In this document: one piece after another, positions 1-39,902 of the stretch
Position numbering within the stretch: the stretch's first letter is position 1
Layout: every line of letters starts with the position of its first letter
Source of the DNA: Candidatus Culexmicrobium cathedralense
Lineage (GTDB): Archaea; Thermoproteota; Methanomethylicia; Culexarchaeales; Culexmicrobiaceae
Length of the DNA: 64,000 nucleotides
NCBI GenBank assembly: GCA_025061115.1
Contig: JANZKC010000001.1
Location: 224,001 to 288,000, forward strand
Reading direction: 5' to 3'
Notes under the pieces: model-generated
Database searches by the model: none
What the model was told of the DNA's origin: nothing
The model's input: the letters and a program-made list of their open reading frames with translations, nothing else
Position numbers and translations under genes: made by a program

Positions 1-978
1 AGCAGCTACAGTGACAGCAAGAGCTAAGGCAGAAACAATGGCTATAAAAAGGGATGAACCTAAAAGGAGAAATCCAAGTGGAGTGAGCGTCAAACCTATG
101 GACTCAGCGCTAGGCATGAGCTCGTAATTTGAAAAAACACCCATGGAGCTCATGTAGTGAGTGTAACCTATCATGTAGACTGAAGAGCCGATTGCAGCGA
201 CGATAATCGAGCTTGTCAGCTTGCTCGCCAAAATAGTAAGCCTGTTAACTGGTAAGGATAATAGTGTTTCCAATGTTTTCTCCTCCTTCTCGATTGCAAT
301 CGAAGTTGCAGCAATTTGCATTGCAAAAACGAGTATCATCATCACCGTAATTGGCATAGTCATTGACTGCGAAGTGATAATTCCAACAACCGCTTCAGGA
401 GGAACATTAACCACTTCTCCCTTAATCACCGAAAGCTTAACTGCAGTTACGGGGTTCAACAACGAATCCGGATCTCTACCTGGAAAAGCCTTCCTAATAA
501 CTTCATCAACCAAATAGTCATTGAATAATTCAACTATTGAGGCTGGGGTAGATGAAGTTCCGGCTTCAGCCATACTTAAAGTTTTAAAAACGGTGTACAA
601 CTCTACCTTAGCCTTAAGTCCTTGAGTTACATTTTCAGTGAACCCTGAAGGTATAACCATTAAGACTGGAAAATCGATCTTTTGAATTTCAGCTATAGCT
701 TCATTAATGTCAACTACGTCGAGAACTTTTACAGTAGCATTAGGATTAGCTTGAAGAGCGGAAATCAGCATTTCAGCCATTCTTCCGCCATCATAGTCCA
801 AAACCGCAATTTTCGGCCTCAAAGCAGCCTCCTTAACCGTTGTGAAAGACAGTCGCATGGCATATCCCATAACCCCAAACATTATTATTGGCATGAAAAT
901 CATGCCTATAATTATCTTCGGATCTCTAAGAAGCTCCTTAATTTCCTTTTCAAGGAGTATTTTAAAGGCTTTAGTCAA
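1..978 (-). CDS. ABC-2/NatB-type ABC transporter permease (3' end runs off the window)
   Basis: Not in the ORF track. Manual translation from TTG at 978 gives MTKAFKILLEKEIKELLRDPKIIIGMIFMP..., with the KE..ELLRD ABC-2 start motif and later the IAIEKEEKTLETLLSLP motif. It overlaps the stop of the upstream ATPase. Confidence 0.88.
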   Translation of the reverse strand, partial: MTKAFKILLEKEIKELLRDPKIIIGMIFMPIIMFGVMGYAMRLSFTTVKEAALRPKIAVLDYDGGRMAEMLISALQANPNATVKVLDVVDINEAIAEIQKIDFPVLMVIPSGFTENVTQGLKAKVELYTVFKTLSMAEAGTSSTPASIVELFNDYLVDEVIRKAFPGRDPDSLLNPVTAVKLSVIKGEVVNVPPEAVVGIITSQSMTMPITVMMILVFAMQIAATSIAIEKEEKTLETLLSLPVNRLTILASKLTSSIIVAAIGSSVYMIGYTHYMSSMGVFSNYELMPSAESIGLTLTPLGFLLLGSSLFIAIVSALALAVTVAA

Positions 979-1717
979 GATTGGTCACCCTCGCAAAAAC
1001 CTCCTCCAAATTTGAAGCTTCATACTTCACCTTTAACTCACTTGGCTTACCCTCAACAAGCAATTTTCCACGATGAATCAACGAAACCCTATCGCAAAGA
1101 TATTCAACTTCAAGCATATTATGGCTTGACAGCAAAATTGTTGTGCCAAACTTCTTAGAATAATTCTTAATGATCCTCCTAACATGATAAGCGTGAAGAA
1201 CATCCAAGCCTGCAGTAGGCTCATCCAATATTGCGAGCCTAGGTCTAATCATGAGTGCTCTCGAAAGTAAGAGCCTACGCTTCATACCCTTACTGTAAGT
1301 TTTAATTTTATCCTTAAGCCTATCACCTAAACCTGATATCTCAGCGGCCTCATTAACCATCCTATCAACTTCATCCTTAGATTTAGCGTAAAAAGCAGCC
1401 ATAAACCTGAGATATTCCTCACCAGTCAAGTTCTTATATGCTCCAGCTTCTTCAGGTAAATAGCTAATCATTCCTCTAACTACATCAGCATCCTCAACAA
1501 CATCATGCCCAAAGACTTTAGCTGTGCCGGAAGTAGGCTTAATCAAAGTAGCAATAATCCGTAAAGTAGTAGTTTTGCCAGCACCATTAGGGCCAATTAA
1601 CCCAAAGATTTCTCCAGGATGAATATGGAATGAAATTTCATCTAGCGCTTTAATCCTACCATAGTACTTCACTAACTTTACTACTTCTACAGCGTATCCT
1701 GCCATTCCGCTCGCCAT
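971..1717 (-). CDS. ABC transporter ATP-binding protein (CcmA/NatA type)
   Basis: Walker A GPNGAGKTT, signature YSKGMKRR, Walker B ILDEPT, H-loop SSH. Confidence 0.95.
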   Translation of the reverse strand: MASGMAGYAVEVVKLVKYYGRIKALDEISFHIHPGEIFGLIGPNGAGKTTTLRIIATLIKPTSGTAKVFGHDVVEDADVVRGMISYLPEEAGAYKNLTGEEYLRFMAAFYAKSKDEVDRMVNEAAEISGLGDRLKDKIKTYSKGMKRRLLLSRALMIRPRLAILDEPTAGLDVLHAYHVRRIIKNYSKKFGTTILLSSHNMLEVEYLCDRVSLIHRGKLLVEGKPSELKVKYEASNLEEVFARVTNLD

Positions 1718-1750: not shown

Positions 1751-2962
1751 CTATAAAGAATCTTCTATTAAAGGTCTAAAAGTCCATTCATTTAAATCAT
1801 TATACATTTGCTTAAGAATTCTAGACGACAAATCCATGGGAATAACTTGAAATAGCCTTGCAATATGCTTGCAAAACTGCTTTACAACGGAAACTCTTGC
1901 AAAGTCTGCGCAATTATGCATTAACAATTTATCCTCAACATCAACAATAATTATGTAATCCCTAACTCTAGCTCTAATCATTTCAGGCGATGCCTCCTCA
2001 ACCACGATTTCATCAATGCTTATTTTCGAAGCTCTCTTCAATCTCCGCTTATCCGTGAAAAGCTGTACAAGCTTACTTGGATCATCACTTGAGAGAATGG
2101 TGTAAACTCTCAACCCTCCCTTAACTGCAGGTGAAGGCACTAAAGCTCTCCCAGACTTGAACTGCTCTTCAACTCTCCTCTTAGCTTGAACTTGCTCAGG
2201 AGTTATAATACCCAGCATTTCGAGGACAATCAACGCCGATTCACATGCAAAACCGTGAAAATGATTGTTAAAGTAGCCATATACTACATCAACTTTTTCC
2301 GATACCTCCTTAACTCTGGGAACCCACTCACGTAATTCTTCAGGTTTATATCGGTAATAGTACCAGGGCCTCTTACCCCTCCCATGCCACCTTATATACG
2401 CAAAGTTAGCTGTAACCTCACATAGTGGAGGAAGTAGAGGCTCATCAACAATAACATAAGCAACATTATGCTTTCTGAGTAAATTAAAGGTTTCATCGTT
2501 AATCCAAGATGAATGCCTAAATTCAATTGCAAACATGAAATCTCTTGGAAGAATTTCAAGCAGCTCCTCAACTAATTCAAGATTACATTTCATTGATGGA
2601 GGAAGCTGAAAAAGGAGAGGCCCAAGCTTATTTGCCTTCTTAAGAGGCTGAATAAGGCTAAGAAAAAGCTCCAAGTCCCTCTCAATCCCAAGTTTAAGAT
2701 TCAACTCCTTTTTATGTGTAATTAATCTAGGAATTTTCGCTGCAAAAATGAAATTTTTAGGTGAACGCCTAACCCATGAACGAACAAGTTTCGGTGAAGG
2801 CAAACTATAGAATGTTGAGTCAATTTCAACGGTATTAAAAACTTTACAGTAATACTCAAACTTCCTACGTGGAGATGGATAGAAAACTCCAACCCAATCG
2901 GAGTAATCCCAACCTGAAGTTCCTATCCTAATTTTAGGCTCATCAAATCTCATAGCTACCAC
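1751..2962 (-). CDS. DUF72 (YecE-like TIM barrel) protein fused to a C-terminal SWIM-type Zn finger
   Basis: DUF72 motifs IGTSGW, VEIDSTFY, LFQLPPS, EFRHSSW, YIRWHGR, YFNNH. C-terminal HNCADF..FCKHI. Confidence 0.9.
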   Translation of the reverse strand: MVAMRFDEPKIRIGTSGWDYSDWVGVFYPSPRRKFEYYCKVFNTVEIDSTFYSLPSPKLVRSWVRRSPKNFIFAAKIPRLITHKKELNLKLGIERDLELFLSLIQPLKKANKLGPLLFQLPPSMKCNLELVEELLEILPRDFMFAIEFRHSSWINDETFNLLRKHNVAYVIVDEPLLPPLCEVTANFAYIRWHGRGKRPWYYYRYKPEELREWVPRVKEVSEKVDVVYGYFNNHFHGFACESALIVLEMLGIITPEQVQAKRRVEEQFKSGRALVPSPAVKGGLRVYTILSSDDPSKLVQLFTDKRRLKRASKISIDEIVVEEASPEMIRARVRDYIIIVDVEDKLLMHNCADFARVSVVKQFCKHIARLFQVIPMDLSSRILKQMYNDLNEWTFRPLIEDSL

Positions 2963-3024
2963 GCCATGCCAATGATTTATTAAGATAAAAGCTACTTAAA
3001 GTTGAAGCTACGGGGATGTAAAAA

Positions 3025-3675
3025 GTGGGGCTAGCGGAACTAATCGACGACATAAACAAAGTAAAAAGCAAAAGTAAAGTAAGAAACCTAGTTGAGAATA
3101 GAATAGCAGAATTCTTAGAAACAAATAAAGCAGATGACAACAGATGGTTTGAAGAACTAGCATTCTGCATTCTAACGGCAAATTCAAGCGCCATGAAAGG
3201 ATTGAAAGCAATAGAATTGTTAAAGGAGAGAAACCTCCTACTTCAAGGTTCACTTGAAGAATTGGAAAAAACTCTAAAAGAAGCAGGACATAGATATGCG
3301 AAAACAAGAGCAGAGTACATCATATCGGCAAGAAAGCTTGTTCCAGGACTAAAAAGGCAAATAACGTCAATTAGAGGAATAAACAATAAGAGGACGTGGC
3401 TTGCGCAAAACGTCATGGGCATAGGGATGAAAGAGGCAAGCCACTTTCTAAGAAATGTAGGTTACTTGGACGTAGCTATAATTGACAGGCACATAATAAA
3501 GATACTAATTAGCTACGACCTAATCGACAAAACGCTAAACAAAAGAACGCTAACCACACGAAGATATTTGAAGATCGAGAACTTAATTAAAAAAATAGCT
3601 AAAAAGGTAAACTTAAAGCCTGGAGTACTCGACTTATACTTATGGTATATGAGCACCGGAAAAGTGTTAAAGTAA
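3025..3675 (+). CDS. ogg: 8-oxoguanine N-glycosylase/DNA lyase (OGG2 type)
   Basis: ELAFCILTANSSA, HhH GIGMKEASHFLRNVG, AIIDRH, C-terminal LDLYLWY..TGKVLK. Confidence 0.93.
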   Translation: MGLAELIDDINKVKSKSKVRNLVENRIAEFLETNKADDNRWFEELAFCILTANSSAMKGLKAIELLKERNLLLQGSLEELEKTLKEAGHRYAKTRAEYIISARKLVPGLKRQITSIRGINNKRTWLAQNVMGIGMKEASHFLRNVGYLDVAIIDRHIIKILISYDLIDKTLNKRTLTTRRYLKIENLIKKIAKKVNLKPGVLDLYLWYMSTGKVLK

Positions 3676-3706
3676 ATTAAAATAAAATGAATTGTTTTAG
3701 AAGCTG

Positions 3707-4672
3707 ATGAGAATGCAAATCCTCATAGGCGCAGGCGGATGGAGCTACTTCAAACTGCCAAAAATAATGGGCGACCCACTTTCATGGTATGCAAAGGCAT
3801 TTAATGTCGTTGAAGTAAACAGCACTTTTTATGAAATTCCATCAATAAAGCTAGCTGAAAGCTGGAGGAAAAGAGCGCCAAGCAACTTTGAATTCACAGT
3901 AAAATGCCATAAATCATTAACCCACGATTTCAAGCTTGAGCTTACTAATGAAGCTAAAAAAACTTTAACACAAATGATAGAATTATGTAAAACACTAAAA
4001 AGCAAAGTACTCTTAATACAGACACCCTCTAGCGTTAAACCTTCAAGAAAAAATCTCGAGAAAGCACTCAAAATAGCTGAAATTGCAAGCACGGAAAACA
4101 TCGAAGTTGCGTGGGAACCTAGAGGAGAAGAGTGGAGATCAAGTGAAGCTAAAGAATTGATGAAGGAATTCGTAGAGAAAAGCAATGGAGCACATTGCGT
4201 AGACATATCCAAAAACGAGCCAGCAGCAGTAAGCCACTTCATCTACACCAGGCTATTCGGCAAGGGTAAACACAACATCTATCAATTTTCAAGCAATGAA
4301 ATTGCAGAAATATACAGTAAAATAATTGGATTAAGTGAAAAAGCGGAGAGAGCATACGTTATAGCGCACACCAAGAAAATGTACATTGATGCTGCAAGAA
4401 TAAAAAGATACGTTGAAACTGGAAAAATACCACCGGCAACACGAAACATTGGAGTGGAAGCAGTAAAGGAAGTGCTAGCAGAGGATGCGAAGTTTCCAAT
4501 AACTAGAGATGAATTAATTAAAGTTCAAGGCTGGAAAGTAATAACTTGGATAAACTTTAAAGATATCAAATTAGCTAAAATTTTGGAGAAAATCCCCAAT
4601 AAAAAGTATTGGAGTATAGATGAAGTCTGCAAAGAAATTAATAAAATTGCAATTAAATTCAAATATATTTAA
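3707..4672 (+). CDS. Second, divergent DUF72 protein with a small C-terminal helical domain (DUF2795/MTH865-like)
   Basis: IGAGGWSYF, VEVNSTFY, FTVKC, LIQTPSS, WEPRG, YTRLFG. C-terminal AKFPITRDELI...KYWSIDEV. Confidence 0.82.
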   Translation: MRMQILIGAGGWSYFKLPKIMGDPLSWYAKAFNVVEVNSTFYEIPSIKLAESWRKRAPSNFEFTVKCHKSLTHDFKLELTNEAKKTLTQMIELCKTLKSKVLLIQTPSSVKPSRKNLEKALKIAEIASTENIEVAWEPRGEEWRSSEAKELMKEFVEKSNGAHCVDISKNEPAAVSHFIYTRLFGKGKHNIYQFSSNEIAEIYSKIIGLSEKAERAYVIAHTKKMYIDAARIKRYVETGKIPPATRNIGVEAVKEVLAEDAKFPITRDELIKVQGWKVITWINFKDIKLAKILEKIPNKKYWSIDEVCKEINKIAIKFKYI

Positions 4673-4677
4673 TCAGC

Positions 4678-5712
4678 CTACTTAAGCCACTTAAATAGCT
4701 CGCGCTGCATGCGACTATTCCGGATATTTCTAAATGCCAATTTAAGCCTATCCAACGCTCTCTCAACTCTTTTAATATTAAACTGCCTTGAAATGAGGAA
4801 ACATTTTATTTCATCTATTTTAGGCTCATTAAAAGAGACTTTATATCGATCAGTTACCGGCGGATTCATGAAAAAGCTTCTTATAGCTTCAATATCGAAA
4901 TCAACTTCAACATTTAATGCTCTAACCACCTTCTCCGCAGATCCATACAACCTTATTAATTTTAGAGCTTTTTTAGGGCCTATACCCCTAACTCCATCAT
5001 TATAATCAGTACCAATAAGTATTGCAATGTCAATTAATTGTCGGCGAGTTAATTTAAGTTTATTGAGCGACTCCTCCAACGATATTAATTCTGGCCACAA
5101 CTTCTTGAACACCCCCTTCTTTGGATAGAATTGCCTACTTTCAACAGCCAAATTTCTCACAAGTACTGGTGCTCCAAAGAGAATCGAGTCATAATCTTGC
5201 GATGCAGATGCATATACATCACCCTTCATCGCCATGTAGGCAGCTTGTGCCTCCCCCTCCGATGGAGCTTGAACCCATGGAATGCCCATTAGATCAAGCA
5301 AGTATTTTGATTCCCTAATAATTTCACTTGTAACACGTGCAGTCATCACCGACTTCTTAAAAGCCTTTGCAATGTCTCCTTCACGAAGAGCCTCAATCCA
5401 CTCTCTAGCAAATCTCTCCCTAATCTTCCTCCGCTCAATGACCTCCTTCATTTTAAATTTTGGAGGAGGCCCATCAAAGACGTAGATTGGAAGAATTCCC
5501 TTTTCAAGTAAACTTATAGTTCTATAAAAAAGGCCTACGAGATGTGAAGTCACTCTTCCTTCAGAATCGGTTAGCGGAACACCGGTTGGAAGTCTAATAA
5601 TAGATAAAAATTGATATAGGGCATTTAAAGCGTCAATTGCAATTGTTCTCCCAGCCAGCTGCCTCAAGCTTATTCTCTTTTTAGCTAACATTGAACCTAT
5701 ATTTGCGCTCAA
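4678..5712 (-). CDS. fen: Flap endonuclease 1 family protein (likely start TTG 5712; the ORF track extends it to 5802)
   Basis: AIDALNALYQFL, YVFDG, PSEGEAQAA, SQDYDSILFG, H3TH GTDYN.GV.GIGPKKA, C-terminal PIP-like QRELFKWL. Confidence 0.92.
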   Translation of the reverse strand: MSANIGSMLAKKRISLRQLAGRTIAIDALNALYQFLSIIRLPTGVPLTDSEGRVTSHLVGLFYRTISLLEKGILPIYVFDGPPPKFKMKEVIERRKIRERFAREWIEALREGDIAKAFKKSVMTARVTSEIIRESKYLLDLMGIPWVQAPSEGEAQAAYMAMKGDVYASASQDYDSILFGAPVLVRNLAVESRQFYPKKGVFKKLWPELISLEESLNKLKLTRRQLIDIAILIGTDYNDGVRGIGPKKALKLIRLYGSAEKVVRALNVEVDFDIEAIRSFFMNPPVTDRYKVSFNEPKIDEIKCFLISRQFNIKRVERALDRLKLAFRNIRNSRMQRELFKWLK

Positions 5713-5973
5713 TTCACTCAAGTATTCATTACAGGCACTATTATAACTTTGGATGCAGCAAGTAAAAAATACAAAAAAGCTGAAAATACTCTTTTTAAAC
5801 ATATAAAAATAAATTACAAAAGAAATATTAATTTAGATGTTTAATATAAAAAAGGGCGTGAAGAATCGTGTTAAGGCAAATTAAATTTACATATCTGATT
5901 AAAAATTCGAAGCATAACGCTATTATTAGTGGTATGAACATATAAATTCACAACCATTATCACGGTGGAATAA

Positions 5974-6693
5974 ATGTCAAGCAGGTTCGATAGCCTCAAA
6001 TTAAGAATAATGGCCGTAGAGAGGCTTAGACTAATAAAGAAAACTTACCCATACAGCAAACTCGCAAAGTACACTGGACTCCCAGAAGCAGTATTATGCA
6101 GGTATGTTAGGGGGTCAGTTTTACCAAGCGAAGAGACAGCAATGAAGCTTTGGAAAGCCCTGGAAAAACTTGCAAGCCTACCTTCATTAATTAAAAAAAG
6201 GCTTCGCTTCACACCTGACGGATACATAGACATTACAGGAGTAATTTTTGATCCATACATATTATCTCACACTGCACAGCACGTATGCATGAAGTTTGCC
6301 GGTAGGAGAATAACTAAAGTTATAACTGCAGCCATAGATGGAATACCACTTGCATCAGTTATAGCCACTACCCTCGAAGTCCCTATAGTCGTAGCTAAGA
6401 GAAGCAAGGATGTTGGCGTAAGAGACTTCATAGAAGAGTCATACCCGACGGAAAGTCCAGCTGAGCTGAGGACCCTATATATACCTAAAGGCGCCATAAG
6501 GTCAACTGATGGAGTTTTAGTAGTTGATGACATAGTTAGAACTGGAAAAACCCTCAGGGCACTGACAAGGTTAGTTAAAAAGGCTAAAGGAAAACTTGAA
6601 GGAATATTTGTGCTTATGGCTATAGGCGATGATTGGATGAGGAAAGTCAATGTAAACTGCCCAATTGAAATTGCAGTTACAATCGAAAAATGA
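5974..6693 (+). CDS. HTH + type I phosphoribosyltransferase (PurR/Apt-like regulator)
   Basis: N-terminal HTH (YSKLAKYTGLPEAVLCRYVRG) and PRPP loop VLVVDDIVRTGKT. Confidence 0.85.
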   Translation: MSSRFDSLKLRIMAVERLRLIKKTYPYSKLAKYTGLPEAVLCRYVRGSVLPSEETAMKLWKALEKLASLPSLIKKRLRFTPDGYIDITGVIFDPYILSHTAQHVCMKFAGRRITKVITAAIDGIPLASVIATTLEVPIVVAKRSKDVGVRDFIEESYPTESPAELRTLYIPKGAIRSTDGVLVVDDIVRTGKTLRALTRLVKKAKGKLEGIFVLMAIGDDWMRKVNVNCPIEIAVTIEK

Positions 6694-6737
6694 AAACTCA
6701 TTAGCGCATGCAAAATATGGATTAAAATTGAAAAGTA

Positions 6738-7007
6738 GTGTACAATATGAAAAGAAGAAAAGGATATCCTAAGGATTCCGACATAAGAAGCGCAATATAC
6801 AAAGCATATAAGGAAGGGCTAGTTTGGCGTCCCGAAAAATTATGTGAAACAGTAATTCAAATACTAGAAAATCAAGAGCTAGACATCAGATACATTACTG
6901 AAAAAAGAATTTGGAGAAATTACGAGCGAATGGTCAGAAAAGGATGGATGCGCGATTGGCTAGGAGTTGTAATTGGCGAAAAGTCTAAAAGGAGAGAGTT
7001 GAAATGA
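6738..7007 (+). CDS. Small basic hypothetical protein (possible winged helix)
   Basis: 89-aa ORF with plausible codon use, co-directional with the PRTase. Confidence 0.6.
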   Translation: MYNMKRRKGYPKDSDIRSAIYKAYKEGLVWRPEKLCETVIQILENQELDIRYITEKRIWRNYERMVRKGWMRDWLGVVIGEKSKRRELK

Positions 7008-8403
7008 AACCGGAAATGCACTCCCTAGCCGACTTTAACAGTAGAGATTTAGGTTTACCATCCAACTTCAAATTTTCAAGCCTTAAAACTCTAAAGTAAA
7101 TTGGAGGATGAGGATCCCAGCCAAGCCACCTCTGAATCCTATACCCCCTATACCGCTCATAGAAAAGCCTGCGAAAACCAATCTTCATTAGCGCATTGCT
7201 AAGAGCACCACTTAACTTAAGCTTAAATGCCGACTCTAAATCTGCTCTAGCCTCAAGAAACTTAGCCACAAAATATAGCAAAGTTATTGAAAATATGAAA
7301 TATATTAAATCAAAGGGCCATCTCAATTCCCATAAAATGTAAACTCTTGCCAAGTACTCGATGCTGGATATGATAAGCAATATTAGGGGATCTCTATTGA
7401 TTAAGTGGCTGATCTCATGACCTATGACGGCCTTAATCTCCTCATCATTTAAAGTAAATGCTAGACCAGAAGTTACAAGGAGACGAGCAAACCTTAAAGC
7501 AGGGCCTGTAGCGGCGGCATTAGGAATAAATGTATTAGCTACAATTGTTAAAGGCATTGGAGCATTATAGGCATCAACAACCTCTCTAATCAACCTATAC
7601 ATGGGGACTACTCTGATAGCTACTTTGCTAGGAGGGCAGTGTACACCCCAACTTCTCAAAACTTCACTGACGACTTCAGGCGTAATGGACTTTCCAACTG
7701 CCAAGGTCTTCGCATATATTTGCCTTTTAATTTTCATAACGTCGCTCCACCTTTTAACAACCAATTTTCTAAAGTCCATCCTGGAAAGCTTGCAAATTGC
7801 CACGTGCAACTCGCCATTACTTGAACTGAGCGTCCAATCACCAAGATATGAAATTATTTTGTGAGAAAGCATAAAGACGGCAATTTGAGAAGCAAGTATT
7901 CCAATAGGAGCATATTCCTTTAAAATAGCAAACATGAAGTAGCCGAAAACCAAGAAAATGAGAAGTAAAGCCAGTAAATTTCCAGCGAGAATCCTACTTA
8001 AAATTCGCCTCCCCACGGACAATTGCTTTGAAGGAATTATTGGAAGTCCTGGGATAAATACTAAGCCAAGCGTCGCTTCATCCAAATTAGCTATAAATTG
8101 ATATGTGAAGAACTGAAAATCAATAGTTAAGTCAACGAAAGTATCGATAGGAGCTGGACGCGAGGATTCAATGGTTATAGTTGGAAAGCGTGAAGCCCTT
8201 ATGGTGACAACATAACTTACATCACTACTCTCATCTGAAATAGTAATCTTCAAAGCATCAATATCATCAACATACTCGATGGAGGTAAGGTTACTGCCAA
8301 ATCTCTCTACGCATTTTCTCTCAATAAAATGCAAATATGGCGCGTACTCATCGGGAGTTAATATGAAGCCGAACTCGTAAGTTTTACTTTTAATGGAGCT
8401 CAA
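6985..8403 (-). CDS. M48/HtpX-family membrane Zn metalloprotease with a long N-terminal extension
   Basis: PNAAATG, HEISH (HEXXH), EARAD, HPP motifs and several TM segments. Confidence 0.85.
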   Translation of the reverse strand: MSSIKSKTYEFGFILTPDEYAPYLHFIERKCVERFGSNLTSIEYVDDIDALKITISDESSDVSYVVTIRASRFPTITIESSRPAPIDTFVDLTIDFQFFTYQFIANLDEATLGLVFIPGLPIIPSKQLSVGRRILSRILAGNLLALLLIFLVFGYFMFAILKEYAPIGILASQIAVFMLSHKIISYLGDWTLSSSNGELHVAICKLSRMDFRKLVVKRWSDVMKIKRQIYAKTLAVGKSITPEVVSEVLRSWGVHCPPSKVAIRVVPMYRLIREVVDAYNAPMPLTIVANTFIPNAAATGPALRFARLLVTSGLAFTLNDEEIKAVIGHEISHLINRDPLILLIISSIEYLARVYILWELRWPFDLIYFIFSITLLYFVAKFLEARADLESAFKLKLSGALSNALMKIGFRRLFYERYRGYRIQRWLGWDPHPPIYFRVLRLENLKLDGKPKSLLLKSARECISGFISTLSF

Positions 8404-8462
8404 TTTACCTCAACATGATTATCGGATAATCCCTTATATTTGTAGAGCCATCATAACAGTAT

Positions 8463-9254
8463 TTGGGTGAAAGATTGAGCAGCTACGTCGTAGATTTAAA
8501 TTGCGATTTAGGGGAAAGCTTTGGAACGTATGTTAAAGGATTAGATGAAGAAGTTATGAAGTACATAACTTCGGCAAACATTGCCTGCGGATTCCATGCA
8601 GGAGATCCCTCTGTAATGAGAAAAACCGTGAAATTAGCAAAGAAATTTAACGTAAAAATAGGCGCTCACCCCGGGCTGCCCGACCTAATGGGATTCGGCA
8701 GAAGATGGATTGAGGTTAAACCTGATGAAATAGAAAACTATATGCTGTATCAAATAGGCGCTCTTAATGCATTCGCAAAATGCGAAGAACTAATGCTTCA
8801 ACACGTCAAACCCCATGGAGCACTATACAATAAAGCTGCAGTAAACATGGAAGTTGCAGAGGCAATTGCAAGAGCAATAGCCGAGTTCAACCCGAATCTA
8901 ATATTAGTGGGACTTGCAAATTCAAAGCTAATTGAAGCGGCAGAGAAGTATGGGCTTAAAGCCGCACGAGAAGCATTTGCGGATAGAGCATACAATTCTG
9001 ATGGAACTCTAGTATCAAGAAGAAAGCCGGGAGCAGTGATAACTGATCAGCAGAAGATCATTGAAAGGGCAGTGATGATGATCACTGAAGGAATCGTTGA
9101 GTCCATCGACGGAAAGAAGGTTGAGCTAGGAAAAGTAGACACCATATGCGTTCATGGAGACACTCCAGGAGCAGTTGAAATAGCAAGAAAGCTCTACACG
9201 GAACTGCCAAAGCACGGAGTGAAAATAGCAGCAATGTCCAAATTTTTGAAGTGA
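8463..9254 (+). CDS. pxpA: 5-oxoprolinase subunit PxpA (LamB/YcsF)
   Basis: [50 protein letters not shown]. Confidence 0.95.
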
Positions 9255-16990: not shown

Positions 16991-18025
16991 ATGTCAATTT
17001 TAGATCAGTTAATAGGCGTTAATTTAGATACGTTTTTAAGTTTCCACCGCCATGGTAAGTTGAATACCAGGTGGACTAGCGAATTGAAGCTTGGAGCTTC
17101 AGGATTTAATGTTGGCAAGAGAAGTAGAAGTGAAGTACTAGATTACTTGGCAATAAGAAGCGAGTTTGAAGCTCTAAGGAAGGCTGGAGGAGAAGTTGAT
17201 GAATTAATGTTCACCGACTGCGCATTAGGGGAAGAATTAACAAACGCAATGGCTAGAAGAGGTTTGCTTTTGTACCCCACAGTTGATGAAATGGAGAGGA
17301 TAAGAGAAATAGCTAGAGAAATTGGAGTTGAGATTGGAGGACATGCCTCATTCCTAATAAACCTGGCATCCCCAGATAGTAGGAAGAGAAGTGCTTCCAG
17401 AGGACATATAACAGCACTTTCCAGAAGACTTGCAGCTGCTGGCGGAATTTATGGAGTAATGCACCTAGGATTTATTGGAAGCTACTCCGAGGAGGAAGTT
17501 AAGAACGTAGTTCAAGAGGAATTAGAGAAAATTATAGGCTCATTAGAAGTTCAGCTACTTGTTGAAAATGCAGGTAAAAGAAAGGCTGTAGGCTCTCTTC
17601 AATTCGTTCTTGACTTAGCTGAAAATCTAGGAGTTAAATTATGCATTGACTGGGCGCACCTTCACGCGTACACCAGAGGAGGAATACGAAGCGAAGAAGA
17701 TGCTGTGAAAATAATTGACTTGATTGAAAATAGGCTTGGAAAATTTGATGAATGGGTTCCAGTAATGCATATTTCAGGCATAAAATATGGAGCGGGAGGA
17801 GAAATAGAGCATTTAGGACTATTAGAGTCGGATTTCAACTGGTACGCTGTAATGAAAGTTCTAATTGAAAGTGGAGTTGACAACATATTAATTTGCGAAA
17901 GCCCGAAAAGGTGGACTGGAGATTTGGAAATTCTTCACAAAGTATTACTTGGAGAGAAAATTAAATTTAAAAAGCCTGCTCAAAGATCGATTACGGATTG
18001 GATAAAAGATAAAGATATTAGTTGA
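16991..18025 (+). CDS. Endonuclease IV-like (AP endonuclease family 2) TIM-barrel protein with a C-terminal PIP box
   Basis: Metal ligands HAS.LINLAS, MHLG, VENAG, CIDWAHLHA, MHISG, EH, CESP; tail QRSITDWI. Confidence 0.85.
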   Translation: MSILDQLIGVNLDTFLSFHRHGKLNTRWTSELKLGASGFNVGKRSRSEVLDYLAIRSEFEALRKAGGEVDELMFTDCALGEELTNAMARRGLLLYPTVDEMERIREIAREIGVEIGGHASFLINLASPDSRKRSASRGHITALSRRLAAAGGIYGVMHLGFIGSYSEEEVKNVVQEELEKIIGSLEVQLLVENAGKRKAVGSLQFVLDLAENLGVKLCIDWAHLHAYTRGGIRSEEDAVKIIDLIENRLGKFDEWVPVMHISGIKYGAGGEIEHLGLLESDFNWYAVMKVLIESGVDNILICESPKRWTGDLEILHKVLLGEKIKFKKPAQRSITDWIKDKDIS

Positions 18026-39210: not shown

Positions 39211-39902
39211 TTTAAATACTTACCAGTACGGGAAGCACACCTACACACCTTTTTCAAGGGACAAGATGCACAAAGTGGATTTCTAGCTTTACAATACCTT
39301 CTTCCAAGAGCAATTAATAGCAGGTGAGCGTCCAAGTAGCTTGAAGGAGGGAAGAACTTCATAAGGGAAATTCTAGTTTGCTCATAATTAGCATTTTGAG
39401 CAACTATTCCAAGTCTCTTAGAAACTCTATTTACGTGAGTATCAACTGGAAAGGTGGGGGCATCAGCTGCAAATAATAAAATTACATCTGCAGTCTTCCT
39501 ACCAACTCCAGGCAAGCTAATTAAAAGCTCTCTAGCCTTCTCTAAAGGATAATCGAATATTTTTCTTAAATCACCGTCAAATCTCTCTAAAATAGCCCTT
39601 GAAACCTCCCTGATAATTATAGCTCTCTTCTTATACATTCCAGCAATCTTAATGGCATTTTCAATCTCCCCAACAGGAGCAAACGATAAAGACTTGGGAT
39701 TAATTTCAAACTTCTTAGACAAGTTGTTGAAGGCTCTAATTGCATTTTTATCGGAAGTGTTCTGAGTTAAAATCGTCATGATCAACAGTTGAAATGGATC
39801 TTTAAACTTCAAGGCGATCTTCAATGCAGCAAAATCATCAACACTAACAAACAATTTCTCCTTCAAAACGTCAAGAACGAATTTTGAGTCAACACTTATC
39901 AT
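39207..39902 (-). CDS. nth: Endonuclease III
   Basis: ILTQNTSD, HhH LPGVGRKTAD, PVDTH, FeS motif C-x6-C-x2-C-x5-C. Confidence 0.93.
   Translation of the reverse strand: MISVDSKFVLDVLKEKLFVSVDDFAALKIALKFKDPFQLLIMTILTQNTSDKNAIRAFNNLSKKFEINPKSLSFAPVGEIENAIKIAGMYKKRAIIIREVSRAILERFDGDLRKIFDYPLEKARELLISLPGVGRKTADVILLFAADAPTFPVDTHVNRVSKRLGIVAQNANYEQTRISLMKFFPPSSYLDAHLLLIALGRRYCKARNPLCASCPLKKVCRCASRTGKYLN

Follow-up and report, generated by a model that had tools for sequence, protein, structure and literature searches.

A group of four neighboring genes in a 64,000-nucleotide stretch of DNA from Candidatus Culexmicrobium cathedralense (the whole of which is referred to as the window) is best explained as a lineage-specific cluster drawn from a broader association in archaea, the hub of which is a long DUF72 protein (DUF72L) with a metal-site TIM barrel and a SWIM-like finger. 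The DUF72 family is very large, with E. coli YecE among its members, and crystal structures have been available since 2004; to our knowledge, its function has never been measured in these twenty years. The DUF72L locus and its relatives offer several partners to test: a FEN1 paralogue, an 8-oxoguanine glycosylase/lyase, a paralogous second subunit, and a zinc finger. Since the grouping recurs in part across many archaea, a DNA-repair role for DUF72 becomes testable. The gene content, domain architectures, conserved residues, recurrent adjacencies, and FEN1 paralogy were observed directly here. We give an even chance to the reading that DUF72L is a DNA-lesion/end-processing enzyme feeding a clamp-bound, second FEN1 (FEN1b), with a shorter DUF72 protein (DUF72S) as an accessory paralogue and Ogg as a lineage-specific addition.

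The four open reading frames were all found as in the preliminary description, which had placed two different DUF72 genes around ogg: DUF72L (1751..2962, minus strand, 403 aa), an Ogg2-type 8-oxoguanine DNA glycosylase/AP lyase (3025..3675, plus strand, 216 aa), DUF72S (3707..4672, plus strand, 321 aa), and FEN1b (4678..5712, minus strand, within an open frame of 4678-5802). The spacings read from the sequence were also the same: 62 bp between the divergent DUF72L and ogg, 31 bp between the co-directional ogg and DUF72S, and 5 bp between the convergent DUF72S and FEN1b. The 62-bp intergenic region (2963..3024, no strand) contains one AT-rich box (~2974-2992), and is a putative promoter region common to both genes. 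DUF72L may start at ATG 2953 rather than GTG 2962, because orthologues begin near that alignment column. The archaeal FEN1 profile (TIGR03674) matched the FEN1b frame from residue 34, and TTG at 5712 is therefore a sensible start. The downstream block (PRTase, M48 peptidase, and LamB) and the upstream ABC-2 pair showed plain synteny.

DUF72L passed PF01904 with 225.4 bits (gathering cut-off: 25.3; residues 31-244), and consists of a TIM barrel (residues ~10-250) that a helical linker joins to a SWIM-like zinc finger at the C-terminus (residues ~319-373; 1844..2008, minus strand). Its AlphaFold model (pLDDT 88.5) was superimposed by VIA-align on 1VPQ (Z 28.3, rmsd 2.2, 241 aligned residues) and 1VPY (Z 26.7), which are T. 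maritima TM1631 and E. faecalis EF0366 (also 1ZTV), respectively, of DUF72/UPF0759 (PF01904). By both sequence and fold, DUF72L and DUF72S are members of this family. The tested set of polar residues (E, H, E-x-R, D-E-P, R-x-H-G, and N-N) was complete in DUF72L: E46, H83, E147, R149, D173, E174, H193, N232, N233, and H234, at or just past the modelled strand ends, were all retained. In contrast to the solved members, DUF72L adds a ~150-residue linker and the finger, in which the motif H349-x-C351...C364-K-H366 was conserved without exception in the tails of all 80 orthologues (the best 80 of 314 DUF72L relatives). The SWIM family (PF04434) was the commonest weak Pfam match in these tails (38/80 at E up to 1, all sub-threshold, best E 0.0035), the second-commonest family reaching only 4/80. 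The DUF72-SWIM architecture of the preliminary description is based on the invariant motif and these weak matches; the tail in the window itself had no SWIM match in the Pfam search. Like PF04434, the finger has β-strands followed by a helix, ligand pairs around a 12-residue spacer, and a typical C-K-H as the second pair; on the other hand, its first pair is HxC (HxCx12CxH), not the CxC of CxCxnCxH. Four short strands followed by helices were modelled (pLDDT of strands and helices, 77-97). In Atlas features, the finger matched a cluster with a SWIM content of 22% (score 0.90), which is a lead only. The finger appears to be of a SWIM-like, nucleic-acid type, and the conserved polar set together with the invariant finger suggests that DUF72L is active.

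DUF72S passed the same profile (127.3 bits, cut-off 25.3; residues 24-224), and its model (pLDDT 96.1) was superimposed on 1VPY with Z 23.9 (rmsd 2.4, 223 aligned residues) and on 1VPQ with Z 22.5. It differs from the solved members of DUF72/UPF0759 in a remodelled pocket and a DUF2795-like tail (residues ~238-321; 4418..4669, plus strand), and pairs with DUF72L in a putative operon in many archaea. The DUF72 polar residues are retained at some positions only: F184 replaces the family histidine (RxHG), D166-x-S168 replaces DEP, and H221...M225-Y226-x-D228 replaces NNH. This altered set was itself invariant or nearly so in 36 DUF72S orthologues. The tail in the window scored 19.0 bits on PF11387 (under the cut-off of 25); among the 36 orthologues, 34 matched PF11387 (best E 1.3e-8), 18 DUF5789, and 16 DUF5785. 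In Atlas structure rows, the tail resembled stand-alone DUF2795/DUF5789 proteins (TM by query, 0.73-0.87). Two specialised accessory domains, as first supposed, were right in outline: the SWIM-like finger on DUF72L and the DUF2795-type tail on DUF72S.

Fold searches placed both barrels in the xylose-isomerase-like superfamily. For DUF72L, the closest non-DUF72 folds were MbnB (Z 15.0), M. tuberculosis EndoIV (5zhz, 14.4), a tagatose-epimerase-like protein (14.2), ASFV AP endonuclease (14.1), UvdE (2j6v, 12.2), and E. coli EndoIV (1qtw, 11.8), rows within 1 Z counting as ties. A 3-keto-glucoside 1,2-lyase (8tcd) had Z 12.5 to DUF72L and 14.5 to DUF72S, and an O-glycoside β-eliminase (8bvk) had Z 13.4 to DUF72S. 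Since EndoIV and UvdE scored no better than sugar epimerases, a nuclease chemistry of the DUF72 barrels is presumptive. Neither DUF72L nor DUF72S matched AP_endonuc_2 (PF01261) or UvdE (PF03851) at E up to 0.01, and a genome-wide search for UvdE gave no match at all. Five further AP_endonuc_2 barrels are encoded in the genome, one of which scored 71 bits on the nfo model TIGR00587 (cut-off 129.65); a canonical AP endonuclease may therefore already be present, and there is no "missing enzyme" argument for DUF72.

The linkage was surveyed in the best 80 of 314 DUF72L relatives, those most similar to the query; these loci are mostly from metagenome-assembled genomes of Bathyarchaeia and are not independent, and the flank was shorter than 1 kb on one side in 24 of them. 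Every gene was taken to begin at the earliest start codon in its ORF, and overlap lengths are therefore approximate. DUF72S lay immediately beside DUF72L in 36-37 of the 80 loci: upstream in the same direction in 24-25 (with a 4-7 bp overlap in 19/24), divergent in 10 (43-84 bp between), and downstream in 2 (4-bp overlap); one gene separated the two in three further loci. Taxa with the pair include Bathyarchaeia, Nitrososphaeria, and Geothermarchaeota. FEN1 adjoined DUF72L in nine of the 80 loci, upstream in three Nezhaarchaeales loci (gaps of -20 to +46 bp) and downstream in six Korarchaeia-like loci (-28 to +5 bp), which formed separate clades on the DUF72L tree; in another locus (L020), FEN1 adjoined DUF72S. 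DUF72S with a DUF2795 tail was not found in four Nezhaarchaeales and five Korarchaeia-like genomes having DUF72L-FEN1, and DUF72S is therefore not needed for DUF72L.

Nearer relatives carried more of the arrangement: a genome of the same genus (G001) had the identical order DUF72L/ogg/DUF72S/FEN1, G003 had DUF72L-ogg-DUF72S, and in G005 a DUF72S fragment converged on FEN1, with a DUF72L fragment on a separate contig. Together with DUF72L-FEN1 in two more lineages in opposite orders, this recurrence supports the view that the neighborhood is not due to chance. Linkage strength differed between gene pairs, and the survey of DUF72 with ogg and fen that had been proposed found FEN1 adjacency in two orders, but Ogg adjacency in a single family. 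The four-gene module first suggested was partly supported: DUF72L-DUF72S and DUF72L-FEN1 recur, the Ogg linkage is narrow, and FEN1b was unlinked from the DUF72L block in G003 and G004.

The identity of Ogg was clear: 247.9 bits on the N-glycosylase/DNA lyase model NF002305 (cut-off 183) and 203.9 bits on Ogg-HhH (PF22175), and in a genome-wide search with the latter it was the sole strong match, a second one being weak (22.5 bits). By eye, GMKEASHF and IIDRH presumably contain the catalytic Lys and Asp. Among 61 class relatives, a DUF72 gene adjoined Ogg in only three of the 35 Ogg-bearing genomes, all within the family of the window, and the Ogg-DUF72 linkage is therefore narrow. Ogg and DUF72S were both present in G003 and both absent from G004, which keeps DUF72L. 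In one Korarchaeia-like locus (L071), an EndoIII-like HhH-GPD gene takes the position of Ogg, divergent from the DUF72L>FEN1 pair, so that two different HhH glycosylases share this slot beside DUF72L. Ogg is best read as a lineage-specific addition to the module.

The FEN1 in the window (442.6 bits on TIGR03674, cut-off 351.95) is a second, divergent paralogue, and not the sole FEN1 of the genome: a canonical copy is located at G000:C4. On the FEN1 tree, the DUF72L-linked copies fell in long-stemmed divergent clades outside the canonical clade (17 rows), which follows taxonomy. FEN1b keeps 74 of 127 canonical-invariant columns, and the carboxylates D27, D80, E152, E154, D173, D175, and D236 were kept in 9/9 FEN1b sequences; it therefore looks catalytically active. 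The C-terminus in the window, QRELFKWL, is PIP-like, and a Qxx[L]xxW-type C-terminus was found in 7/9 sequences. Two FEN1 genes were present in eight of the 61 class relatives, all of which carry DUF72L with its tail; G004 has DUF72L plus a FEN1b-clade copy as its only FEN1, and no second FEN1 was found in the other 50 class-relative genomes. Within this class, FEN1b was confined to DUF72L-bearing genomes.

We infer that DNA is the substrate of DUF72L, and that its chemistry is directed at damage. DUF72L would bind damaged DNA, helped by its finger, and cut or clean the strand at a lesion, abasic site, or blocked 3' end; strand-displacement synthesis from the nick would raise a 5' flap, which a dedicated, PCNA-docking FEN1b would remove before a ligase closes the nick. 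DUF72S would be an accessory or second subunit in lineages having it, and DUF72L may contact DUF72S or FEN1b physically and be co-transcribed with them. In Methanomethylicales, FEN1b and DUF72L have an ogg-DUF72S unit between them, which brings 8-oxoguanine excision beside the module; the lyase product of this excision requires 3'-end cleaning. This reading is favored by Tm1631, which was predicted to be EndoIV-like, with a sulfate in the conserved patch and a predicted homodimer face (PMC3828134). In S. pombe, incision by UVDE is followed by flap removal by Rad2/FEN1. EndoIV (Nfo) and UvdE share the barrel fold with DUF72L, and the proposed logic is alike (a nick 5' of the damage, with FEN1 removing the flap), whereas in sequence neither PF01261 nor PF03851 nor the nfo model matched DUF72L or DUF72S, and the likeness is at the level of fold. 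Compared with archaeal long-patch base excision repair (Ogg2-type glycosylase, AP endonuclease, PCNA-bound FEN1, and ligase), the first and last enzymes are side by side here, but the middle step would come from an uncharacterised family, and the genome has this FEN1 in addition to its canonical copy. A more specific version, which we put forward only tentatively, is that DUF72L (with DUF72S where present) is a third, hitherto unrecognised DNA-damage incision/end-cleaning enzyme of the EndoIV/UvdE superfamily, widespread in TACK and Asgard archaea and handing its nick to a PCNA-bound FEN1 paralogue in a self-contained "nick-and-flap" route, to which 8-oxoguanine excision is attached in Methanomethylicales. 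If so, archaea, and by extension many bacteria, would have an additional lesion-incision/end-processing enzyme, and the retention of two FEN1 genes by some archaea would be accounted for.

Sugar epimerases, 8tcd, and 8bvk are among the closest non-DUF72 folds, level with EndoIV, and sugar remnants occur on the product of Ogg as well as on the substrate of FEN1. DUF72L might accordingly be not a phosphodiesterase, but a sugar-chemistry enzyme for damaged deoxyribose, a metal-dependent β-eliminase/isomerase removing 5'-dRP or 3'-unsaturated aldehyde ends in an AP/dRP lyase-type step beside FEN1b and Ogg; we regard this as unlikely, and it sits poorly with Tm1631, where the sulfate in the conserved patch was read by the authors as a phosphate site (PMC3828134). 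Konc et al. proposed lesions with at least two unpaired nucleotides (PMC3828134), which would suit a role of DUF72L-FEN1b in replication-linked flap/primer processing or in ribonucleotide, mismatch, or bubble incision rather than base excision repair, the Ogg adjacency being incidental. The recurrent partner in the best 80 of 314 relatives was FEN1 (10 loci) and not Ogg (2-3 loci), and Orc1/Cdc6-like ATPases (L022 and L050) and RadA-like genes (eight loci, one or two genes from the DUF72S>DUF72L pair) recur nearby. However, the divergent slot shared by Ogg and the EndoIII-like glycosylase, and the co-presence (G003) and co-absence (G004) of Ogg and DUF72S, argue against this role, and its probability is low.

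It is quite improbable that there is no functional module, and that DUF72L and DUF72S are metabolic barrels merely inherited near repair genes. Neither DUF72S nor FEN1 lay beside DUF72L in 30 of the 80 loci, the two other DUF72 paralogues of the genome sit among unrelated genes, and the flanking blocks are plain synteny, as such a view would expect; it is opposed by FEN1 adjacency in two opposite orders in separate DUF72L clades with overlapping frames, by the restriction of FEN1b to DUF72L-bearing genomes, and by the nucleic-acid-type finger, invariant in 80/80.

In the portions of the literature naming DUF72 that were covered, no published description of the finger, the DUF72S tail, or the DUF72L/DUF72S pairing was found, nor was one found for DUF72-SWIM beside FEN1. 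A report on PolB2-iRadA-PPB2 damage-tolerance operons describes DUF72 as enriched near PolB2 operons, and thus likewise beside DNA-damage genes (PMC11791011); in contrast, the DUF72L loci examined had no PolB2, the partners being FEN1b, DUF72S, and Ogg. Besides the EndoIII-like, RadA-like, and Orc1/Cdc6-like genes, which also count in favor of the main reading, two single loci bring DUF72 next to further DNA-repair genes: an AP_endonuc_2 barrel is directly upstream of DUF72L in L081, and a LigD 3'-phosphoesterase gene overlaps a DUF72 gene in G033.

The open reading frame (ORF) listing and the family scans recovered four genes in the window: a long DUF72 barrel with a SWIM-like finger (DUF72L, 1751-2962, minus strand; 403 aa, 225 bits for PF01904), an Ogg2-type glycosylase/lyase (3025-3675, plus strand; 247.9 bits for NF002305, cut-off 183), a short DUF72 with a DUF2795-type tail (DUF72S, 3707-4672, plus strand; 321 aa, 127 bits for PF01904), and a FEN1 (FEN1b, 4678-5712, minus strand; 442.6 bits for TIGR03674, cut-off 351.95). 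DUF72L and Ogg were divergent across 62 bp, Ogg and DUF72S were co-directional with a gap of 31 bp, and DUF72S converged on FEN1b with a gap of 5 bp; the genes, coordinates, and spacings of the preliminary description were all borne out. Gene starts are the first start codon of each ORF. The genome assembly (G000, with the window at C1:224001-288000; 1.98 Mb, 99.99% complete, 7.65% contamination) contained four DUF72 genes, and the two outside the cluster sat among unrelated genes. None of these four proteins ended in a canonical PIP-box (Qxx[LIVM]xx[FY][FY]) when inspected by eye.

All residues that are conserved across the family and shared by TM1631 (the DUF72 protein from T. maritima of solved structure) were present in DUF72L: E46, H83, E147/R149, D173-E174-P175, R191-W-H193-G, and N232-N233-H234. 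They mapped at or just past strand ends in the predicted model (pLDDT 88.5). The C-terminus, following a helical linker, was built of four short strands plus helices and bore H349-x-C351...C364-K-H366; this HxC...CKH motif was invariant in 80/80 orthologues. The tail is SWIM-like, not SWIM, since the Pfam SWIM model gave no match to the window's copy, though it was the commonest weak match among the orthologue tails (38/80, best E 0.0035; four for the runner-up family). In two loci of one genus (L012, 6234-8041 on the plus strand, and L013; genomes G019 and G045), a DUF72S-like gene (314 aa) stood in tandem with a barrel of the L type (283 aa, 216 bits) that lacked the SWIM-like tail, so that genus can do without the finger. 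DUF72S (model pLDDT 96.1) had a motif set of its own, also conserved: D-x-S for DEP, an invariant F184 for the family histidine, and H221...MY-x-DA for NNH. Its tail is of the DUF2795/DUF5789/DUF5785 type; PF11387 matched 34 of the 36 orthologue tails (best E 1.3e-8), with the window's copy at 19 bits, under the cut-off of 25, and Atlas structure rows were matched with TM values of 0.73-0.87. DUF2795 was found in no title or abstract of the literature searched, and sequence searches of the DUF72L and DUF72S tails against solved structures returned only chance-level rows (best E 0.13 and 0.42).

A scan with the DUF72L alignment, using one genome per species, confirmed 314 relatives, of which the best 80, all covering the tail, were analyzed. 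These were the loci most similar to the query, many of them close kin, and all relatives were metagenome-assembled genomes. They were distributed among Methanomethylicota, Nezhaarchaeales, Bathyarchaeia (the majority), Korarchaeia-like Thermoproteota, Thermofilaceae, Nitrososphaeria, Geothermarchaeota, Baldrarchaeota, and one Odinarchaeota bin. Neighbors were called with custom HMMs on six-frame ORFs, and adjacency counts are lower bounds because in 24/80 loci the flank on one side was shorter than 1 kb. DUF72S directly adjoined DUF72L in 36-37 of the best 80 loci: upstream and co-directional in 24-25 (overlaps of 4-7 bp in 19/24), divergent in 10 (43-84 bp between), and downstream in two (4-bp overlap). 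In three further loci, one gene lay between them, Ogg in two and an ATPase_2/MCM_C protein in one. FEN1 adjoined DUF72L in nine of the best 80 loci, upstream in three (-20 to +46 bp) and downstream in six (-28 to +5 bp), and adjoined DUF72S in L020. In the DUF72L tree (trees were built by quick searches, with SH-aLRT values as the only support), the copies from Methanomethylicales and Nezhaarchaeales were sisters (support 88), and the loci with FEN1 downstream fell into a separate clade (support 100 for a nine-row group). The FEN1-DUF72L adjacency thus has at least two origins, with opposite gene orders.

Within the class (61 genomes), the full order (ABC-2, ABC, DUF72L on the minus strand, Ogg and DUF72S on the plus strand, FEN1 on the minus strand) was repeated in G001, from the same genus. 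G003 kept DUF72L, Ogg, and DUF72S together with FEN1 not at that site, and in G004 DUF72L was present, with Ogg and DUF72S found nowhere in the assembly. In G003 and G004, FEN1b remained with the block that follows it in the window (PRTase, small ORF, M48 peptidase, and LamB/YcsF), apart from the DUF72L block. In G005, from another family, a DUF72S fragment converged on FEN1, and next came the same PRTase as in the window; a separate contig carried a DUF72L fragment with the finger and then the same ABC pair. In all four Nezhaarchaeales genomes, FEN1 was directly followed by DUF72L, without Ogg or DUF72S. Neither these four nor the five Korarchaeia-like genomes with DUF72L-FEN1 yielded an S-type gene bearing a DUF2795 tail. 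Read on its minus strand, the window may be the Nezhaarchaeales order with an inverted ogg-DUF72S unit between FEN1 and DUF72L, as we infer from these arrangements. The linkage proposed in the preliminary description stood in part: DUF72L-DUF72S and DUF72L-FEN1 recurred beyond the class, but a DUF72 gene lay beside Ogg in only 3/35 Ogg-bearing genomes among the 61. Downstream of DUF72L, the ABC-2 permease and the ATPase (1-1717, minus strand) were syntenic in the family and G005. Beyond FEN1b, an HTH-PRTase, an 89-aa ORF, an M48 peptidase, and LamB/YcsF (5974-9254) kept their synteny in G003 and G004, and G005 retained only the PRTase as far as seen. Neither group is obviously part of the module. 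Ogg-HhH matches of family f5 genomes lay in open frames of 285-334 aa, versus 217 aa in the window, and these frame lengths suggest an extension or fusion there.

G000 contained two FEN1 genes. Two copies were found in 8/61 relatives (G000, G001, G003, G005, G012, G015, G030, and G032), all eight of which carried DUF72L with its tail, and a second FEN1 was found in none of the other 50 genomes. Among 35 FEN1 sequences placed in a tree, one clade of 17 rows tracked taxonomy; it contained all single-copy FEN1 genes together with the unlinked copy from each class genome that had two. The DUF72-linked copies formed two long-stemmed clades, Nezhaarchaeales (four rows) and Methanomethylicales plus G005 (five rows, including the unlinked FEN1b of G003 and G004), whose join was weak (72) and a possible long-branch artifact. 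The nine FEN1b sequences all retained the seven catalytic carboxylates. Of the 127 columns that do not vary across the canonical clade they conserved only 74, and in 7/9 cases they had a Qxx[L]xxW-type C-terminal motif. In the Korarchaeia-like clade, 4/5 genomes had two FEN1 genes; here the DUF72L-linked copy was on the shorter branch, and one genome had no other copy.

In the literature searched, none of the titles and abstracts listed described an experimental function for DUF72 (YecE, UPF0759, Tm1631, PF01904). In the parts of two papers examined, Tm1631 was predicted by computation only to be an EndoIV-like endonuclease with a homodimer face (PMC3828134), and DUF72 was enriched near PolB2 operons and its fold likened to that of UvdE (PMC11791011). 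These texts mentioned neither the pairing of DUF72S and DUF72L in an operon nor the DUF2795 tail, and they described no dedicated paralogue of FEN1 and no insertion of Ogg; the supplements of PMC11791011 may list neighborhoods. Fold comparison concerned the barrels, which filled the Foldseek and VIA-align lists for both full-length proteins. Solved DUF72 structures were matched strongly (Z 28.3 and 26.7 for DUF72L; 23.9 and 22.5 for DUF72S). For DUF72L they were followed by a plateau of xylose-isomerase-like barrels: MbnB (15.0), M. tuberculosis EndoIV (14.4), a tagatose-epimerase-like protein (14.2), ASFV AP endonuclease (14.1), UvdE (12.2), and E. coli EndoIV (11.8). DUF72S gave a similar ranking, and Foldseek agreed. 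Since rows within 1 Z of each other are ties, the predicted models assign DUF72 to the superfamily of EndoIV and UvdE and do not favor a nuclease over sugar chemistry; the kinship cited earlier held for the superfamily, but sugar epimerases scored as well as EndoIV and UvdE. An argument from a missing AP endonuclease was dropped: although ExoIII (PF03372) and UvdE gave no match in a search of G000, the genome contained five AP_endonuc_2 barrels, one with 71 bits on the nfo model (cut-off 129.65). One AP_endonuc_2 (xylose-isomerase-like) barrel lay 12 kb from the cluster (17279-17914, plus strand; G000:C1:241279-241914; 344-aa open frame; 87 bits for PF01261; nfo model score 43 bits, far under the cut-off), and another, at C1:217751-218491, approximately 5.5 kb before the window start.

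The architectures, conserved residues, recurrent adjacencies, and FEN1 paralogy are established, and in the likeliest pathway DUF72L would act on DNA, helped by the finger, and create or clean a nick at a lesion, abasic site, or blocked 3' end; displacement synthesis would then lift a flap, clamp-bound FEN1b would cut it, and a ligase would seal the nick. DUF72S would be an accessory or second subunit. A DUF72L-DUF72S heterodimer is plausible given the translational coupling of the two genes and the homodimer face predicted for Tm1631 in the text seen (PMC3828134); complex prediction returned a score of 0.00, which is no answer and evidence neither way. That DUF72L is a repair enzyme working with FEN1b is, in our estimate, an evenly balanced proposition, and the narrower assignment to the EndoIV/UvdE type, as nuclease or phosphodiesterase, is offered tentatively, as possible rather than probable. 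A less likely rival is sugar chemistry (lyase/dRPase), represented on the same fold plateau. The product of the Ogg lyase requires 3'-end cleaning, which fits its placement beside the module. Likewise less likely is a replication or ribonucleotide role to which Ogg would be incidental. In its favor, Orc1/Cdc6-like ATPases occurred near DUF72L in two loci (L022 and L050); against it, an EndoIII-like HhH-GPD gene (PF00730, 97.5 bits; L071, 5313-5945, minus strand, Korarchaeia-like) was divergent from the DUF72L-FEN1 pair. Mere synteny is a further rival, against which stands the repeated origin of the FEN1-DUF72L adjacency.

Clustering of the flanking genes at DUF72L loci revealed no other large recurrent partner, but several smaller ones were DNA-related. 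RadA-like genes occurred in eight loci; these Rad51/RadA-like genes (234-376 aa) were divergent from DUF72S-DUF72L and upstream in L040, L042, L049, L067, L075, L076, and L091, and at +3 in L050. For five of the upstream genes (those of L040, L042, L067, L075, and L091), the neighbor was an 89-aa ORF without a Pfam match. In L081 (Bathyarchaeota bin; 5054-5872, plus strand), an AP_endonuc_2 barrel (273 aa, 107 bits) was directly upstream of and co-directional with DUF72L. The EndoIII-like glycosylase of L071 occupied the position held by Ogg in the window. The Cdc6-lid AAA+ gene of L050 was directly downstream of DUF72L, and in L022/L011 (774-4325, G044:C127) paralogous ATPase_2 plus MCM_C winged-helix genes (375 and 369 aa) flanked DUF72L, with DUF72S divergent upstream. 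L099, titled Candidatus Dormiibacterota bacterium, carried a DUF72L near-identical to that of the Bathyarchaeia bin L096 (branches 0 and 0.011) with the same flanks, and the contig looks archaeal and mis-binned. A weak Ogg-HhH match in the window (22.5 bits, under the cut-off; 39390-39842, minus strand; G000:C1:263390-263842; 233-aa open frame) is probably another HhH-GPD glycosylase. In L019 (6554-7821, minus strand, G033:C1), a DUF72 ORF (312 aa; frame open for 389 aa) was overlapped in a different frame by a LigD 3'-phosphoesterase (PE) ORF (150 aa), and the pair may represent one PE-DUF72 gene, frameshifted or fused.
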